Origin: a virus
Taxonomy: Duplodnaviria > Heunggongvirae > Uroviricota > Caudoviricetes
Length of the DNA: 64,000 nucleotides
Direction: 5' to 3' (one strand)
IMG/VR virus record: IMGVR_UViG_2609459822_000013
Location: 1-64,000 of that record
Under the pieces are notes generated by a model. The model ran no database searches. It was not told the DNA's origin and saw only the letters and a program-made list of their open reading frames with translations. Shown here piece by piece: positions 2,562-43,028 of the stretch; within the stretch, counting starts at the first letter, position 1, and each line of letters begins with the position of its first letter. Made by a program: the position numbers and the translations under genes.

Positions 2562-3971
2562 TTAAAAAGATGCGTTATTCTGATTGTTTCGTTGGTTGAA
2601 TCGGTTTGTACGATGATTCATGGACTGAATACATGCAGACGCTGCGCGGGCCTGGTCACAAGGGAGGATATTGCCGTTGTCATCAAACCGCTGGTAAACA
2701 GTGCCACTTTTCCCGTGACGGTTTTTAGATACAATTATTTCCATATATTCGCGTGCTACAGACTGTTCATCGTAGTAACCATCGCGGTACACCATGATGA
2801 TCCTGTCAGCGTCTTGCTCAAGGTTCCCGGAATCGCGAAGATCTGAATTGTTAGGGCGCTTATTCGGTCGTTCCTCAACGCGGCGTGACAGTTGGGCCAG
2901 CGCCAACACTGGTACGCGCAATTCTTTCGCCATCATCTTCAACGACCACGACAATTGCCCTACAGCGAGATCGTGACGTTCGGCCTTAGCCAGCTTCATT
3001 AACCCGATGTAGTCAATCATTACCATACCCAAGTTGGGGTGTTCCTGTTTCATCCGTTCCGTGGTGGCGCGTATTTCCTCAACCGTTAACTGCGACGCGT
3101 CAACAATCCACACATCAAGATTGGCAAGTGCGCTCATACCCTGGCCAACATGCGCCCACCCCTCATCATCAAGTTTTACCGGATTGCGCAGGCAGTCAGT
3201 TGATAAATTACCAGCGCCAGCGATAGCACGTTCAGTCATCTGATCGAGTGACATTTCAAGCGTAAACAGCAAAACGCCTACCCGCTGACCTTCGCCGCCA
3301 GGGTAAGGGCGTTCGGCAGCCTCGCGGGCAATTGCAAGCGCCAACGCAGATTTACCAGACCCAGGACGTCCGGCGAGAAGCACCAGATCAGTAGCGTTAA
3401 TGCCGCCTAACATTTCGTCGAGTGGGTCAATCCCTGTTTTGATGTTGTCAGAGTTCACGCCACACTCCATGCGTTTACTTAGCACTTCCGTGTATTCCTG
3501 GACAGCATCGCGCAACAGCACCGGGATAATCTGATCTTTTGTTACCTTTAATTTTGAATACCGGGAATCAAAATCTTTCATCGTCTCTTTGACGACCTCA
3601 AGTGTCCCAGTTTCCAGTTTGTAGCGCATATCGTCGATGAGTTCCAACATCTGCCGCCGCTGGTGCTCTTCACGTAGTAGCTGTGCATATCCCTTCAGGT
3701 TGGCAGCAGAAGGGCACGATCGCGCCGTTTGCATTAGCGGTACAAAGTTTTCATTACCAATCTCATCACCAACCAGTAACGCGTCGATAAGATTTCTGTT
3801 TCTGGCTTGCGCCCGGATAATTTCAAAAGCCCGCTTATATAGCGGAATAGTGAATACTTCAGGATCGAGCGTAGCAAGAACGTCTTGCGCGTTAGGTGTA
3901 AGCCCGCCTAACAGGAGTCCGCCTATCACAGCAGACTCTCGTTCTTGTCGCAGTGAGTTAACAGAATCCAT
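2562..3971 (-). CDS. DnaB-family replicative DNA helicase (P22 gene 12-like)
   Basis: 469 aa; Walker A LAGRPGSGKSALALAIA, DnaB C-terminal motifs (LAQLSR..E.R...R.PNNSDLRDSGNLEQDADRI). Confidence 0.85.
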   Translation of the reverse strand: MDSVNSLRQERESAVIGGLLLGGLTPNAQDVLATLDPEVFTIPLYKRAFEIIRAQARNRNLIDALLVGDEIGNENFVPLMQTARSCPSAANLKGYAQLLREEHQRRQMLELIDDMRYKLETGTLEVVKETMKDFDSRYSKLKVTKDQIIPVLLRDAVQEYTEVLSKRMECGVNSDNIKTGIDPLDEMLGGINATDLVLLAGRPGSGKSALALAIAREAAERPYPGGEGQRVGVLLFTLEMSLDQMTERAIAGAGNLSTDCLRNPVKLDDEGWAHVGQGMSALANLDVWIVDASQLTVEEIRATTERMKQEHPNLGMVMIDYIGLMKLAKAERHDLAVGQLSWSLKMMAKELRVPVLALAQLSRRVEERPNKRPNNSDLRDSGNLEQDADRIIMVYRDGYYDEQSVAREYMEIIVSKNRHGKSGTVYQRFDDNGNILPCDQARAASACIQSMNHRTNRFNQRNNQNNASF

Positions 3972-3987
3972 TATGGCATTACCTCCG

Positions 3988-4003
3988 GTTTACAAAATGG
4001 AAT
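3988..4003 (+). repeat. dispersed motif copy GTTTACAAAATGGAAT
   Basis: exact 16-mer; overlaps the last codons of the phosphoesterase gene, just upstream of the helicase RBS. Confidence 0.6.
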
Positions 4004-5108
4004 ATTCAGGGTAATAAACAAAGCGCCCGATTTCCCCGTGATCAGGACTGTAAATTATTCCCGCCGTCAGACGCCGCGACCGCCAGCCGCCATTCGTTGA
4101 ATAAGCGTCTTTGCCCGCTAACGTGCCGTGATACTCAACAACGCCTAACGATGATTCAATCAACCGTTGGTGGTGCCAGTGCCCGCAATGAGCATAAACC
4201 GCCGCAGACTTACCGAAATCTTCCCGCCAGTCAGAGACGCAGGCAGACAACAAATTTTCTGGTTTTTTGATGGTGTGTCCGTGGTGGTAAGCAAGGAATG
4301 TTTTGCCGTACTGTGTGTGGTGTACGATAGCAGGTGACACGTCAATCGTTACGCGCGGTTCATCTTCGTAAAAAGCCGCCAGCGCAGCACGTAGCCAAAT
4401 CATCCCCGACTGATCGTGATTACCTGATAATACCTGGATTTCGATTTCTTTGTGGTTTAACAACATCTTTCCTACAGCACGGCGGACTGACCGGATCGCC
4501 ACATAAACAAGTTTTGCGTAGCGTGAATCGCAATCAAGTACGTGATTGCTTGATGGCGTCACTGGCAACAGCCCATCAGTGTGAAGAACATCCCCACCGA
4601 GAAGCAATACAGCTTTTTCAGACATCGGCGCTGCGCCTACCGCGTAGTCAAAGAAATCATTTAGCACGCGTTCAGCGATCCCGGTGTCGTAGCTCTCACC
4701 GCATTCAGCTTTATGAGCAAGCGCCCCGATATGCAGATCGAATACCGGATAAAGGGCCAGGCTTTTTTGGAAATCAATTTCCGGCACTGGCACGGCCTCC
4801 GCGCGTGGCATGTCTTCCGTGAAAGCATCGCAAGCCGCTTGCATTAGCCTTTCCATTTCATCGCGATCACGGGCTGTTTTAATCCAGCGCATAATCACAT
4901 TGCCATCCTTATCGACGAGCAATGACTCACCATTGACGCCAAAGCCCGGCGCGCGACGCGTGGATATTAAACCGCGTTTCGCCAACCGTGCGCCCAGGCG
5001 TTCGACGTTGCGTTTTGCCATTCCATATTCTTCTGCTATTTGCTTGTAAGTTTTCCCCTTGTTGTACTCGGCGATCAGTTCCTCATCGCTGATCTTTCTT
5101 TGTGACAT
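3990..5108 (-). CDS. N-terminal HTH fused to calcineurin-like metallophosphoesterase
   Basis: 372 aa; HTH YKQIAEEYGMAKRNVERLGARLAKRG; phosphoesterase motifs GGDVLHTDG, SGNHDQSG, HHGH, GHWHH. Confidence 0.6.
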   Translation of the reverse strand: MSQRKISDEELIAEYNKGKTYKQIAEEYGMAKRNVERLGARLAKRGLISTRRAPGFGVNGESLLVDKDGNVIMRWIKTARDRDEMERLMQAACDAFTEDMPRAEAVPVPEIDFQKSLALYPVFDLHIGALAHKAECGESYDTGIAERVLNDFFDYAVGAAPMSEKAVLLLGGDVLHTDGLLPVTPSSNHVLDCDSRYAKLVYVAIRSVRRAVGKMLLNHKEIEIQVLSGNHDQSGMIWLRAALAAFYEDEPRVTIDVSPAIVHHTQYGKTFLAYHHGHTIKKPENLLSACVSDWREDFGKSAAVYAHCGHWHHQRLIESSLGVVEYHGTLAGKDAYSTNGGWRSRRLTAGIIYSPDHGEIGRFVYYPEYSIL

Positions 5109-5285
5109 AACGTTATTACCCCCGGTTCGCGGAATGAGTATTTATTCATAAATAACTAATTTTTATTAACATGGATTTCACGGTGTCAAAAAATGCCAGT
5201 AGGGTTAATCAACAACTTATGCAAATTGAAATAACCACTTAATGAATAACTAATCGTATACATTACGGTTTACAATTTGTATACA

Positions 5286-6341
5286 TTAGGATATAGCACA
5301 ACGGAAAAACTTGCACCCCAAATAATCTTCAATGCGTTTTTGTCTTATCGCATCGCTTTTTACTTGCCGTTTGTGATGTGACTCATCAATTTCTACAGCA
5401 ACGTTATTCACAGGATCGTAGCCATCAATAAAATACTTATTGCCAGCAACATCAACAGGATATTGCCTTATTAATTTAACTCCTTTTAGTTTTTCATACA
5501 TAGTTAAGCCAGCATGTTCATAACGCTTCCTAATCATATTTTTACAATTATCTCTCATTTCTGATAATTTCGAGTCGCACTCCTTTTTTATTTCTTCAAT
5601 TACATTTTTATCGCTTTTTAATTCAATAAAGTTTTCTATGTCGTTATAATTCCCGCATTCAAAATTATTATTAAGACCTTTATTTTCACCCCATGCATGA
5701 TACTTTTCTGCCATCTTATCGCTAATATATCTTTCATACCCATAATTTGTTTTAACTATAAAATATTCAATATTTAAATCAATGGTAAACTCATCATTAT
5801 TGAGGTGTTCAGTTAAAAACGCATCTGGATCTGCAATATCGCTTGAATGGAACAACCTTACCCATAGTTTTTCTATTGATACTCCGCGAGTGACGAACAA
5901 CCATTTTTTGTACTTTTCAGCATCTTCTTTTGACACATACACAGAACATCGCCCAGGAGTATCACTCGTTTCAACATAATTGTTACACCATAAAATATAA
6001 TTATAAGCATAAGGACTATCTTTTTTGGTGTTATTTGAATATTTATTAAAGATATCTTGCAAGTCAACTAATCCACAAGATTCAATAACTGGCTTAACCC
6101 ATTTTTCATTATATTCATAATGTCTATATTTACCAGGTGTAACGAATCTAATAAACGTTATGGGTGTGATATACACATCATCACCATCAACAATAAAATC
6201 CTTGTATTCCTCAAATCCGTAAAGATCAGAGTATTTAACAAATGATTTAAGTCTATCAATTTCAAGTTCAGAAACCAGATTATTAACAGACAGTAATTGC
6301 GTGTCCTTACAATTGAGTTTCATATGATAAGTAGCAATCAT
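5286..6341 (-). CDS. AT-rich accessory protein with C-terminal restriction-endonuclease-like (Vsr/DUF559-type) domain
   Basis: 351 aa from ATG with perfect AAGGAGG RBS; strongly AT-rich codon usage; C-terminus GNKYFIDGYD...VAVEIDESHHK...DAIRQKRIEDYLGCKFFR matches the Vsr/DUF559 pattern. Confidence 0.55.
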   Translation of the reverse strand: MIATYHMKLNCKDTQLLSVNNLVSELEIDRLKSFVKYSDLYGFEEYKDFIVDGDDVYITPITFIRFVTPGKYRHYEYNEKWVKPVIESCGLVDLQDIFNKYSNNTKKDSPYAYNYILWCNNYVETSDTPGRCSVYVSKEDAEKYKKWLFVTRGVSIEKLWVRLFHSSDIADPDAFLTEHLNNDEFTIDLNIEYFIVKTNYGYERYISDKMAEKYHAWGENKGLNNNFECGNYNDIENFIELKSDKNVIEEIKKECDSKLSEMRDNCKNMIRKRYEHAGLTMYEKLKGVKLIRQYPVDVAGNKYFIDGYDPVNNVAVEIDESHHKRQVKSDAIRQKRIEDYLGCKFFRCAIS

Positions 6342-6492
6342 ATATACCTCCTTTATTAATTTTCTATATAACGCCTCAGACGAGCTACAACGCAAAAATC
6401 CCACCGCGTAACCCGTTTACAGGTTGCAGTGTCTTATTGCGCTAGAGGCGCTATCAGGTGGCTAATTTTCGATTTACAGACTGGTAGGTAGG

Positions 6493-6594
6493 TTATGGAT
6501 TAACTAGCAGATACAAACCGCCGAACAAGGCGACGTTAACAGCGATAGCCATCGCGATCGCGAAAGCCAGGGCGAACATGCGTTTACCGTCCAT
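6493..6594 (-). CDS. small hydrophobic peptide (33 aa, MDGKRMFALAFAIAMAIAVNVALFGGLYLLVNP)
   Basis: short ORF with AGAGGA RBS; single predicted transmembrane helix; between replication initiator and nuclease-like gene. Confidence 0.3.
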   Translation of the reverse strand: MDGKRMFALAFAIAMAIAVNVALFGGLYLLVNP

Positions 6595-6726
6595 TTTAAA
6601 ATCCTCTCTGTAACGCTCTCTAACGAGCTAATCGCAAAAAGGCAAGCAAGTTAGCACCACATGCGATTTAGCTCGCTGGTGAGGTTGTTTTGTGGGTAAT
6701 TTTGGATTTTTGCGGATCGTGATTGG

Positions 6727-7773
6727 TCAAAGAACGCCAGCGCGCGTATCACGTAGCGTTTTTGGTTTAAGCAGAAAATCAAGTGTCGCAGTGAAGCCAT
6801 TGCCAAAGTAAAAATCTGAAGCCGTGTTTTTGAACGTTTCGAAGTAGGCGACAAAGCCGTTAATGCTTTTGTCTTTCAGGTAGTCAGTGAACGCATAGAT
6901 CTTGCGTTCAAGATCCCGATCCAGTTCGGCAGGTGGTAACAGGCCGTCAAACGTGCTGTTAAATGCTTCCACCACGTCGGCAGCGTTTACAGTAGCTGAT
7001 AGCTTGCGCCATTGTTCAGCATCAGCCAAATACCCATCAAACCTAGTTACCCGGCAAATGTTGATAGGCTTAGGTACTCCATCACGGCTACGCCATTGGG
7101 TTAAAGCCCACTCAATTACTAACGTGATCTCATTCTCCGTATACGCTTTACATGTTTTTGTTTCTGTCAGTAGTTCTACGAATGGCTTAGCATCACGACA
7201 TTTGCATCCTGCCTTGTCGTTGTAGAAGGCAAGGCAACGCAATGCCGCTTCGTTTACGCCATCCTGATTGACCATTTTTTGTTCATTTTCGACAATACAC
7301 GAAGTGTATATATCTTTTTCTCTTTCTTTTTCTACTTCTAATTCATGACCCTTTCCTGACCCGGTCATGACCCTATCATGACCTTTTTGTGTTGGATTGA
7401 TTAACTTTTCTAATTTTAATTGTTCCTTCGCTGTGTTTATGGCGGCCCTGTAAGCGCTTTTAGAAGTCATTGATTGGTCCAGCCTTTTCAATAACTTTAA
7501 ACAAGTTATGTGGCCTTGAGAACATTCAAACAAACCAATTTCGATGAAGTATTTCATCATTTCTTCTATACGTTTTTCAGTAGATCCGACGTTTCGCGCA
7601 ATTATTCTTGCGTCATGTCGTAGGTCAAAAGTTAGATTGTGCTGATCTACGTCATAAGTTATTAGTTCTAGGCAATACCAATAAAGCCCGTACCCTTCCA
7701 GGCCATAATCTAACAAAACGTTTTGAAGTTTTTCATCGCGGTTCGCATCGCTGTCATGCTTAAACCACTTCAT
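6727..7773 (-). CDS. phage replication initiation protein (DUF4373-type N-terminus)
   Basis: 348 aa; N-terminus MKWFKHDSDANRDEKLQNVLLDYGLEGYGLYWYCLELI characteristic of phage replisome organizers; GGAGGG RBS. Confidence 0.7.
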   Translation of the reverse strand: MKWFKHDSDANRDEKLQNVLLDYGLEGYGLYWYCLELITYDVDQHNLTFDLRHDARIIARNVGSTEKRIEEMMKYFIEIGLFECSQGHITCLKLLKRLDQSMTSKSAYRAAINTAKEQLKLEKLINPTQKGHDRVMTGSGKGHELEVEKEREKDIYTSCIVENEQKMVNQDGVNEAALRCLAFYNDKAGCKCRDAKPFVELLTETKTCKAYTENEITLVIEWALTQWRSRDGVPKPINICRVTRFDGYLADAEQWRKLSATVNAADVVEAFNSTFDGLLPPAELDRDLERKIYAFTDYLKDKSINGFVAYFETFKNTASDFYFGNGFTATLDFLLKPKTLRDTRAGVL

Positions 7774-8339: not shown

Positions 8340-8987
8340 ATGAAAACAAAATGGTATGACTTAGCAAAGCAGCTCATGCGGGCGCAGGGCATGAGCCAGG
8401 ATTCACTAGCGGATCGCATGGGGATAACTAAAGGCGGTCTGTCACACTGGCTGAACGGTCGCCGCGAGCCAAATCTTGAAGATATTGCGCGGATTATGCG
8501 AGAGCTTGGTCGTCGGCAGTTCACTGTTACACATGATGGTATGGTCATTGATGATTCTGTTTCTAATACACTTCAGGCCGTGCCGCCGCGTGATTTAGGT
8601 AGTTACCCGGTTATTGACTGGAAGGACACAGTAAACAATATGGATGACGCAAGGCGTTCAGCATTACGACACGTTACGACTAGCGTTATTTGTTCAGATG
8701 ACAGTTACTGGCTGGTTGCCAAAGGTGAATCAATGAACGCGCCGCAGGGGTTGAGCATCCCGGCGGGGACGATGATACTTGTGGACCCGCACGCGCCAGC
8801 TATTGACGGCAAACTGGTTATAGCCCAGCTTGAGGAAGGGCAGATACCGACGTTTAAACAGTTGATTATTGATGGAGGTCAAAGGCTTTTACGTTCGCTC
8901 AATCCGCTGTATCCGCCAATCCCTATGAATCCAGAATCAAAAATTATAGGCGTGGTGGTTGATGCGAAGATCGTAAACCTGCCATAA
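8340..8987 (+). CDS. CI-type phage repressor (HTH + S24 LexA-like peptidase)
   Basis: 215 aa; N-terminal HTH (QDSLADRMGITKGGLSHWLNGRREP); C-terminal S24 motifs (AKGESMNAP...GTMILVDP). Confidence 0.85.
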   Translation: MKTKWYDLAKQLMRAQGMSQDSLADRMGITKGGLSHWLNGRREPNLEDIARIMRELGRRQFTVTHDGMVIDDSVSNTLQAVPPRDLGSYPVIDWKDTVNNMDDARRSALRHVTTSVICSDDSYWLVAKGESMNAPQGLSIPAGTMILVDPHAPAIDGKLVIAQLEEGQIPTFKQLIIDGGQRLLRSLNPLYPPIPMNPESKIIGVVVDAKIVNLP

Positions 8988-9487: not shown

Positions 9488-9778
9488 ATGAGCGTTACAA
9501 TTATATATGGTAAATGTGATAGCAAAATGAATGCCAGGGAACGCAGAAGGATAAAAAGAGAAAACGAAAGAAAATCATCACCTGCAATCAATAAAACAGA
9601 CAATGTGGATAAAGCTATTCGATTTGCAAACGAGGAAAGATGCAAACCGAATGGCATTAAAGAGCATCGCAAAGGTGCGGCAAAATGGTATGCGGAAAAC
9701 GAAAGCGGCAATTACTACCACGCAACACAACCGCGTAGTCTAGGGGAAAAACCCCTGGATAAAGTACGCTACAGATAA
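9488..9778 (+). CDS. N-type transcription antiterminator (P22 gp24-like)
   Basis: 96 aa; N-terminus MSVTIIYGKCDSKMNARERRRIKRENERK resembles recalled P22 gene 24 N-terminus and carries an arginine-rich motif; ACGGAG RBS. Confidence 0.65.
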   Translation: MSVTIIYGKCDSKMNARERRRIKRENERKSSPAINKTDNVDKAIRFANEERCKPNGIKEHRKGAAKWYAENESGNYYHATQPRSLGEKPLDKVRYR

Positions 9779-9927
9779 TACAAAATGTAAACTTTCAAAG
9801 GTGACATTATGGTTGTTCAGGCGCTTCAATTCAAACTGGCAGTAGCGGAAATGCTTCACGATGCCGAAATGTGGAGCGCCGCGAATAAAGCCTTATACAT
9901 AGTGTTAACAGCACGGGAGATTAAATA

Positions 9928-16603: not shown

Positions 16604-16634
16604 TAATGGCGCTTTTTGTCTTGTTTGGGGGTAT

Positions 16635-16647
16635 CCATTTTGTATAC
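16635..16647 (-). repeat. dispersed motif copy (reverse) TATACAAAATGGA
   Basis: inverted partner of the 16567 copy, 55 bp away. Confidence 0.55.
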
Positions 16648-16724
16648 TTCAAGCAAACAAAATGCTCTTTAAAAATCCGGCAGCGCTGAAATGCGTAGAA
16701 ATCACCTGAAAAGGAGAGAGCATT

Positions 16725-42980: not shown

Positions 42981-43028
42981 TTCCCCTTCGTTTGAGTAAA
43001 ATATACATATTGTAAAACAACGATCAAT

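Follow-up and report, generated by a model that had tools for sequence, protein, structure and literature searches.

The AT-rich cassette and its gene

We analyzed a 64,000-nucleotide (nt) stretch of DNA, here called the window (positions 1 to 64,000 of the IMG/VR record IMGVR_UViG_2609459822_000013), which is an mEp021-like (mEpimmI) prophage of Escherichia coli, with attention to a gene on its minus strand (5286..6341) that encodes a 351-amino-acid (aa) protein ending in a Vsr-like nuclease domain. The gene is carried by a foreign cassette (5147..6379, minus strand) made up of a 119-nt spacer, the coding sequence, and an AT-rich leader with the ribosome-binding site (RBS), and the cassette is absent from relatives in which the same slot of the early operon is empty. 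Windowed GC content was 28-33% over about 5200-6400 and 45-54% in the flanks. The GC of the 1233-bp cassette is 0.309 (z = -4.4), and when all 64 kb were compared in stretches of this length, the minimum fell at 5139-6371. At third codon positions, GC was 0.26 for the nuclease gene vs 0.52 for the phosphoesterase gene next to the slot. In blastn against the empty-slot phage MagusPhagus, homology ended at window position 5146 and restarted at 6380, so the foreign DNA is limited to 5147-6379, and 6380-6726, with a GC content of 47%, is conserved backbone. An earlier note on this DNA had described an AT-rich insertion at 5109-6726; the AT-richness is real, but that interval reaches too far on one side. 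From flank to flank, the span measured 2401 bp here and 1179 bp in 7 empty-slot prophages.

The mechanical list of open reading frames (ORFs) gave the ORF 372 aa, from a GTG start (5286-6404). The 351-aa reading (351 codons plus the stop) starts at ATG 6341, 4 nt after the Shine-Dalgarno sequence AAGGAGGT (6346..6353, minus strand), read from the sequence, and agrees with the RefSeq call WP_021527772.1 ("DUF559 domain-containing protein") in E. coli M15, which bears out the perfect RBS and the protein length given in the earlier note. The sole full-length relative is a 353-aa allele, 78% identical, from strain Ecol_244 and a handful of other assemblies. Between the two alleles, the synonymous divergence (pS) was 0.63, with synonymous sites near saturation, and the ratio of nonsynonymous to synonymous rates (dN/dS) was 0.09 over the whole gene, 0.06 for aa 1-90, about 0.06-0.18 for the orphan N-terminal region described below, and 0.05 for the nuclease domain. 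No frameshifts or stops were present in any of the 11 contigs on record with the gene (from a collection much larger than the 33 prophages surveyed below), and the gene was found behind both Lin1244-type and HTH_36-type replication initiators. The entire protein, and not its nuclease tail alone, has long been kept by selection.

The C-terminal ~77 residues (aa 275-351; 5289..5519, minus strand) are a Vsr-like (DUF559 / PvuRts1I-N-type) PD-(D/E)xK catalytic domain with the key residues E283, D306, E317, D319, E320, H323, D330, and R333. The Pfam DUF559 model (PF04480) matched aa 282-339 marginally, its score of 21.7 bits just exceeding the gathering cutoff (20.6); relatives that share the domain reached 23.8-24.5 bits, and the match to the Pfam PvuRts1I-like_N model was sub-threshold. 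The PADLOC mREase_II profile matched aa 288-349 (E = 1.3e-8) at profile positions 37-101 of 294, which is its nuclease part only, and a profile of nine relatives found the AbaSI and PvuRts1I nuclease domains in the PDB at E = 0.002. AlphaFold with a 47-sequence alignment predicted an alpha-beta-beta-beta-alpha-beta core (predicted local distance difference test score, pLDDT, 91.4), for which Foldseek ranked PvuRts1I/AbaSI at the top. In the viral structure library, the domain matched Bro-N proteins of giant viruses and several phage entries named "homing endonuclease," "group I intron protein," or "VSR endonuclease."

In the alignment of hidden Markov models (HMMs) to AbaSI, D306 corresponds to D61 (Vsr D51), E317 to E72, D319 to D74, E320 to E75, H323 to H78 (Vsr H69), and E283 to E26 (Vsr E25); the AbaSI variants D61A, E75A, and H78A are inactive (PMC4081097). 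Across the 47-member alignment, D306, E317, D319, E320, and H323 were invariant, and E283 and D330 were at least 90% conserved. The conserved residues also line up with the composite E-D-x-H-D motif that was described for I-Bth0305I (PMC3239194). Given this residue mapping, the conservation in relatives, and the fold, the domain looks catalytically competent. The Vsr/DUF559 pattern that the earlier note had read at the C-terminus is therefore upheld, with DUF559 above its cutoff and the catalytic residues intact, and the predicted structure has the PD-(D/E)xK core that the note had made its touchstone.

Approximately 206 proteins share this C-terminal module at 45-66% identity, nearly all of them from enterobacterial phages, prophages, or metagenomes. 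Most are 145-160 aa long and have a Rha (pRha) domain at the N-terminus; among the others are proteins with Bro-N (mEp044_12), AntA, or a zinc ribbon plus a sub-threshold NUMOD3-like stretch (P0007), and some are stand-alone domains of 72-99 aa. Judged from these sequences, the family design is a variable DNA-binding head joined to a small Vsr-like nuclease, and the 351-aa protein is the outlier, with a long, unrecognizable head.

That head is an orphan N-terminal region (aa 1-274; 5520..6341, minus strand) presumed to serve in target recognition. An exhaustive phmmer search with aa 1-270 against 1.84 billion representative proteins returned its own cluster only, in line with the earlier note, which could not place the first ~280 residues. 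Pfam, PHROGs, and NCBIfam gave no N-terminal match; Pfam found none on sub-segments even at E<=10, and at that limit no Bro-N, Rha (pRha), AntA, or KilA-N domain on the N-terminal segments. An HMM of the N-termini of 109 relatives scored 1.9 bits on the 351-aa protein, with no likeness to Rha or Bro heads. In the full-length AlphaFold model, pLDDT was below 50 for aa 1-273, and the sole internal structure detected was a weak repeat, YVSKEDAEKYKKW / YISDKMAEKYHAW (z = 3.6). The segment YVSKEDAEKYKKWL resembled FAPKHVADLYKKWL of P0009 at a pairwise E of 0.015 only. We considered a reading of the region as three degenerate KilA-N/Bro-like repeats and rejected it as unsupported: beyond that internal repeat and the weak P0009 match, there was no Pfam or HMM signal. 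Strong purifying selection indicates that the orphan region is functional, and by analogy with the Rha, Bro-N, or zinc-finger modules of relatives, we infer that its ~270 residues supply target recognition.

Slot occupants, junctions, and the early operon

The slot was surveyed with both flanks as probe, which gave 33 complete E. coli records with a recognizable slot. By record, the slot was empty in 7, held this gene in 2, "zinc-ribbon" proteins in 13, and Rha-, Ant-, BRO-, or KilAC-annotated proteins in 12; the zinc-ribbon count includes two record pairs whose members do not differ in length, coordinates, or score, each pair apparently being a double deposit of one assembly. A gene carried by 2 of the 33 prophages, in a slot that is empty in 7 and filled by unrelated genes elsewhere, agrees with the earlier note's view of horizontally acquired cargo. 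The slot is also empty in MagusPhagus, an isolated phage. The zinc-ribbon occupants have 1, 3, or 5 CapR/DUF4379 treble-clef fingers and a T5orf172/MUG113 domain, an architecture described by Barth et al. as that of putative homing endonuclease genes clustering near essential genes (PMC10055350). In the sampled Ant-, BRO-, and KilAC-annotated occupants, KilAC/ANT tails followed a Rha or Bro-N head; for the "Rha" occupant that was sampled (E21845), the Rha domain was the only one seen, and no nuclease domain was found in the sampled occupants of this group. In mEp044, the slot holds two genes, Bro-N+Vsr and Rha+KilAC. The Bro-N+Vsr-like gene mEp044_12 and a Bro-N+KilAC gene have a common 5' junction and nearly the same first codons (L007 2367-2978 vs L011 WCHEC025970 943-1680), which suggests in-place exchange of the C-terminal effector, KilAC for Vsr-like.

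Every slot cassette starts at an RBS after the conserved leader and stops at its own stop codon, and this stop codon abuts a near-palindrome, GTATACA-N3-TGTAAAC(C), itself placed before the phosphoesterase RBS. Two copies on the minus strand stand at the end of this cassette: the near-palindrome (A)TGTATACAAATTGTAAACCG at 5266..5286, overlapping the last base of the stop codon, and a degenerate copy at 5119..5146, which is followed by the phosphoesterase RBS and at which, in the 3'-junction alignments and blast, backbone homology restarts. Over the window, the motif had 9 matches with <=3 mismatches vs 1.55 expected, and none of 100 shuffles reached 9. It also occurs at 9776-9793, 9893-9910, 16630-16648, and 43001-43018, several of these being intergenic sites just upstream of genes. 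The motif may be an operator or an element of the 5' untranslated region as well as the joint for cassette recombination; a bolder and improbable idea is that it is the cut site of the slot nucleases, in which case the slot would work as an array of promoter-less cassettes that renews itself.

Between the two copies lies the 119-nt non-coding spacer (5147..5265, minus strand). It is shared with E. coli MLI107 (locus L003 ~5000-5172), which carries an unrelated T5orf172 cargo and in which the motif is also doubled, and alignments showed it to be absent from the 353-aa allele (allele B) and from other relatives. The spacer is probably the remnant of an earlier, lost tandem cassette. A 23-nt tandem repeat at 5249-5294 spans the stop codon of the nuclease gene.

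A consensus scan, which weak or non-sigma-70 promoters could escape, found no convincing minus-strand promoter upstream of the cargo and no terminator downstream of it. A sigma-70 candidate seen by eye in the spacer (TTGACA, 18-19-nt spacer, TAAAAA(T)) fails the criteria of the scan and is not claimed. Position and the lack of a detected promoter of its own thus point to a promoter-less cassette that would be read with the replication genes once the repressor is lifted.

Upstream of the slot is the gene of a 33-aa single-helix hydrophobic peptide (MDGKRMFALAFAIAMAIAVNVALFGGLYLLVNP; 6493..6594, minus strand), which lies in conserved backbone outside the cassette. In six phages its ratio of nonsynonymous to synonymous divergence (pN/pS) was about 0.1-0.2, with pS up to 0.5 and no indels, and it occupies the same place in all relatives whatever their cargo, those with an empty slot included. 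The gene is annotated in mEp013, mEp044, and MagusPhagus and uncalled in the RefSeq M15 chromosome record. This pattern of conservation identifies the ORF as a real backbone gene for a small, putative membrane peptide; the earlier note was right about a hydrophobic single-helix ORF, which is under selection, but had assigned it to the insertion.

From the peptide gene to the slot runs a conserved leader (6380..6492, minus strand), 75-96% identical among six aligned relatives. It contains, just upstream of the slot, a terminator-like hairpin (CACTGC..AACCTGTAAACGGGTT..GCGGTG) with a U5 run at ~6392-6431 on the minus strand, and this hairpin is kept in all relatives, empty-slot ones included. 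If it is functional, the slot cargo, phosphoesterase, and helicase would depend on antitermination, which would fit the Nus dependence of the group. A structured RNA downstream of the peptide gene was considered and rejected, the consensus fold having almost no covariation (term -0.09). On the other side of the peptide gene, the non-coding stretch from the initiator stop to the peptide start (6595-6726, minus strand) shows 86-96% identity between relatives, which exceeds the conservation of synonymous sites in the adjoining peptide ORF. It contains inverted repeats that interleave (6616-6631/6668-6683 and 6633-6645/6702-6714) as well as recurring TTTTTGCG blocks, and may be a replication origin or a structured leader; a search of 4900-7000 against Rfam gave no match.

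The prophage in E. coli M15 (NZ_CP185789.1) matches the region at 99.9% identity, and the backbone is common to the window and mEp013, mEp044, mEp021, and MagusPhagus. The mEp021/mEpimmI group comprises Nus-dependent, non-lambdoid temperate coliphages (PMC11893012). The early operon runs leftwards on the minus strand, away from and divergent to a LexA-like repressor gene (8340-8987, plus strand). A small HTH gene comes first, then, among its minus-strand genes, the replication initiator (Lin1244_N, 6727-7773), the 33-aa ORF (6493-6594), the nuclease gene (5286-6341), a metallophosphoesterase / "DNA repair exonuclease" gene (phrog_704, 3990-5108), and the DnaB helicase gene (2562-3971), followed by NinB. 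In mEp021, a putative HNH endonuclease gene lies between the phosphoesterase and helicase genes (locus L008, 1-346); the corresponding gap in the window is 18 nt (3972-3989), so this second slot is empty here. The same leader, peptide gene, and slot stand behind two unrelated initiators, Lin1244_N-type in the window (6727-7773) and HTH_36-type in the Ecol_244-type prophages with allele B (L002, L016-L020), which places a recombination boundary at about the initiator stop codon.

Candidate functions of the nuclease gene

Among the three functions offered by the earlier note (a defence or abortive-infection nuclease, a homing-type endonuclease, and a toxin/small-peptide pair), the homing-type endonuclease is the best fit to the context. 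We tentatively read the gene as that of a free-standing endonuclease, of homing type or active in inter-phage competition and made early in lytic growth, a reading we regard as quite possible rather than probable. It draws on the position of the gene between conserved essential genes, oriented with the operon and with its own RBS and no promoter of its own detected; on the empty slots in relatives, the T5orf172 and Bro-N+Vsr genes in the same slot, and the HNH gene in the next gap; on the same cargo standing behind two initiators; on the structural matches to phage proteins whose names say homing endonuclease or group I intron; and on intact catalytic residues combined with purifying selection. 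In T4-like phages, one homing-nuclease family is known to replace another at the same site, and promoter-less cassettes are documented (PMC2988022).

As we picture it, 5147-6379 would be a promoter-less accessory cassette in an early-operon slot, between the initiator and peptide genes on one side and the phosphoesterase and DnaB genes on the other. Its single gene would yield a two-part DNA endonuclease, an orphan recognition region followed by the Vsr-like catalytic domain, where the aligned AbaSI and Vsr residues suggest that Mg2+ would be bound by D306, E320, and the backbone of I318 and that H323 would act on the scissile phosphate. Transcription would take place with the replication genes after the prophage repressor is lifted, at induction or infection. 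The nuclease would then cut the DNA of related phages or prophages that do not have the cassette, and repair from the cassette-bearing genome would favor inheritance of the cassette together with the neighboring replication genes. Cutting and biased inheritance are proposed from analogy with the seg, mob, and hef genes of T4 and the T5orf172 genes of ICP1.

Several observations weigh against this homing-type reading. The alleles are old (pS 0.63), with a divergence no smaller than that of the flanks (83-87% identity), and few genomes carry the gene: 2 of the 33 surveyed prophages and 11 contigs of the much larger collection. Together, age and rarity do not have the look of a recent homing sweep. 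Pfam detected no NUMOD, HTH, or zinc finger in aa 1-275, and no sequence similarity to the proven EDxHD enzyme I-Bth0305I was detectable, the match being one of fold only. Further, the occupants of roughly one in three filled slots are Rha/Bro + KilAC proteins that lack a nuclease domain, so the slot is a general cassette-exchange site and not a landing pad specific to homing endonuclease genes, and cassette exchange here needs no nuclease.

The gene could instead encode a prophage anti-phage nuclease for defence or superinfection exclusion, in which the N-terminal region would sense an infection cue or invading DNA, possibly in modified form as the SRA domain of PvuRts1I/AbaSI does, and the Vsr-like domain would cut invader or host DNA. 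The PADLOC mREase_II match at E = 1.3e-8 points this way, as do the closest solved sequences, which are the nuclease domains of the 5-hydroxymethylcytosine (5hmC)-dependent enzymes PvuRts1I and AbaSI; an AT-rich, rare gene in a variable prophage slot, with purifying selection on the whole protein, would suit defence as well, and ICP1 Odn offers a precedent of a homing-endonuclease-derived nuclease turned on competing elements (PMC10055350). However, the PADLOC match is confined to the nuclease part (positions 37-101 of the 294 in the profile), no reader domain, SRA-like or otherwise, was detected, and the domain order is reversed. The gene lies in a repressor-controlled early lytic operon, after a terminator-like hairpin and with no convincing promoter of its own, so its expression in a lysogen is doubtful, and it has no partner gene (methylase, immunity gene, or antitoxin), the neighboring peptide being backbone. 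We consider a defence role unlikely, and this suggestion of the earlier note is not supported, given the partial PADLOC match, the early lytic operon, and the lack of a detected promoter. Bolder still, and improbable in our view, is the idea of a new fold in the N-terminal region, long conserved in just two alleles, that would recognize or sense DNA and steer a Vsr-type nuclease. The protein would in that case be a new class of single-chain prophage anti-phage nuclease, perhaps one that reads modified DNA much as PvuRts1I uses its SRA domain, or a homing enzyme with an unprecedented recognition module. That the gene is what remains of a mobile nuclease gene, now inactive and in decay, might be suspected from its great rarity, the most AT-rich composition in the window, and an N-terminal region that has no relatives. 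A dN/dS of 0.09 over the whole gene at near-saturated synonymous divergence, the absence of frameshifts and stops in the 11 contigs, and the retention of all catalytic residues make decay most improbable.

A role as an accessory or regulatory protein of the Bro/Rha/KilA/Ant modular class, serving the phage itself, is rather unlikely but has its own evidence. Such a protein would bind specific DNA and nick or process host, prophage, replication, or recombination DNA, or work chiefly as a regulator that binds DNA. The C-terminal module is also found joined to Rha (in most of the 206 relatives), Bro-N, and AntA, and the slot also houses "antirepressor-like" Rha/Bro + KilAC proteins. The Bro-N+Vsr gene of mEp044 shares its 5' end with Bro-N+KilAC, so that Vsr looks like an alternative effector to KilAC, and the probable co-transcription with replication genes and the strong, long-term purifying selection would also be expected. 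Yet the slot is dispensable, since 7 prophages and an isolated, viable phage have nothing in it, the N-terminal region was not Bro-N, Rha, or KilA-N by any test run, and the conserved catalytic residues point to real cleavage over binding alone. The last suggestion of the earlier note, a toxin paired with the small hydrophobic peptide (as toxin/antitoxin or holin-like), could appeal to two adjacent, co-oriented genes and a peptide that is plausibly a single membrane helix. However, the peptide is conserved and selected whether the slot of the phage is empty or holds any of the other cargo types, and 151 nt with a terminator-like hairpin separate its gene from the cargo; the two genes are not gained or lost together, and on the distribution of the peptide and the selection on it we reject the pair as barely conceivable.

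Known systems and implications

Resemblance to the EDxHD enzymes, I-Bth0305I (PDB 3R3P) and Hef, lies in the architecture, both having a small C-terminal Vsr-like PD-(D/E)xK domain behind a separate N-terminal region, and in the placement of E283, D306, the E320 region, H323, and D330 at composite E-D-x-H-D positions. Like Hef of T4-like phages, the gene is carried by a phage and stands free between conserved genes; related genomes have alleles that lack the cassette. In contrast, 3r3p was not found by profile search at E<=10, no NUMOD or HTH was detected in the 351-aa protein, and its gene is not in an intron or intein, homing being proposed here from sequence context. With PvuRts1I/AbaSI, the protein shares an identical motif, D-x10-E-x-D-E-x-H-H ... 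D-x2-R, in which D306, E320, and H323 match the essential D61, E75, and H78. The nuclease domain is C-terminal in the 351-aa protein, whereas it is N-terminal in those enzymes; no SRA-like reader was found, 65 of the 294 positions in the PADLOC profile are matched, and the essential K23 of AbaSI has no evident counterpart by eye on the alignment. Membership of the PvuRts1I family was rejected on the lack of a reader domain and the reversed domain order.

The Rha-, Bro-N-, and AntA-fused DUF559 proteins belong to the same C-terminal subfamily (45-66% identical), and one of them, mEp044_12, sits in the same slot, but they have a recognizable DNA-binding N-terminus of ~70-100 aa, whereas the 270 residues of the 351-aa protein are more than twice that length. 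The CapR/DUF4379 + T5orf172 genes (Barth, Dunham, and Seed 2023) are found at this very slot in sister prophages, likewise carried on promoter-less cassettes whose junctions are the same, and they follow the same logic, with DNA-binding module(s) and a small nuclease beside essential replication genes; they differ in having a GIY-YIG-like fold rather than PD-(D/E)xK, and in unrelated N-terminal modules. The seg/mob genes and Hef of T4 (PMC2988022), which are free-standing, often promoter-less, placed between conserved genes, and replace one another at one site, serve as the model for the gene.

A literature search at the level of titles and abstracts, plus the paper on the mEp021 group, found no paper on the 351-aa protein or its DUF559 subfamily. 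What was already known is the annotation of the gene as a DUF559 protein, and its catalytic domain is of a known kind. New are the orphan N-terminal region under selection, the exact definition of the cassette and its junctions, and the sharing of the slot with T5orf172, Bro-N+Vsr, and Rha/Bro+KilAC cassettes. The false lead of a toxin/peptide pair is removed, and the 33-aa peptide emerges as a genuine phage gene that is uncalled in RefSeq M15. The orphan region, set on a compact and well-understood catalytic domain, is a candidate for a new DNA-targeting module. If the homing-type reading is true, temperate coliphages of a group common in the human gut would carry a swap-prone slot by their replication genes in which Vsr-like, T5orf172, and antirepressor-like genes interchange as precise promoter-less cassettes, and the picture of nucleases at recombination boundaries, drawn from lytic T4 and ICP1, would extend to prophages.

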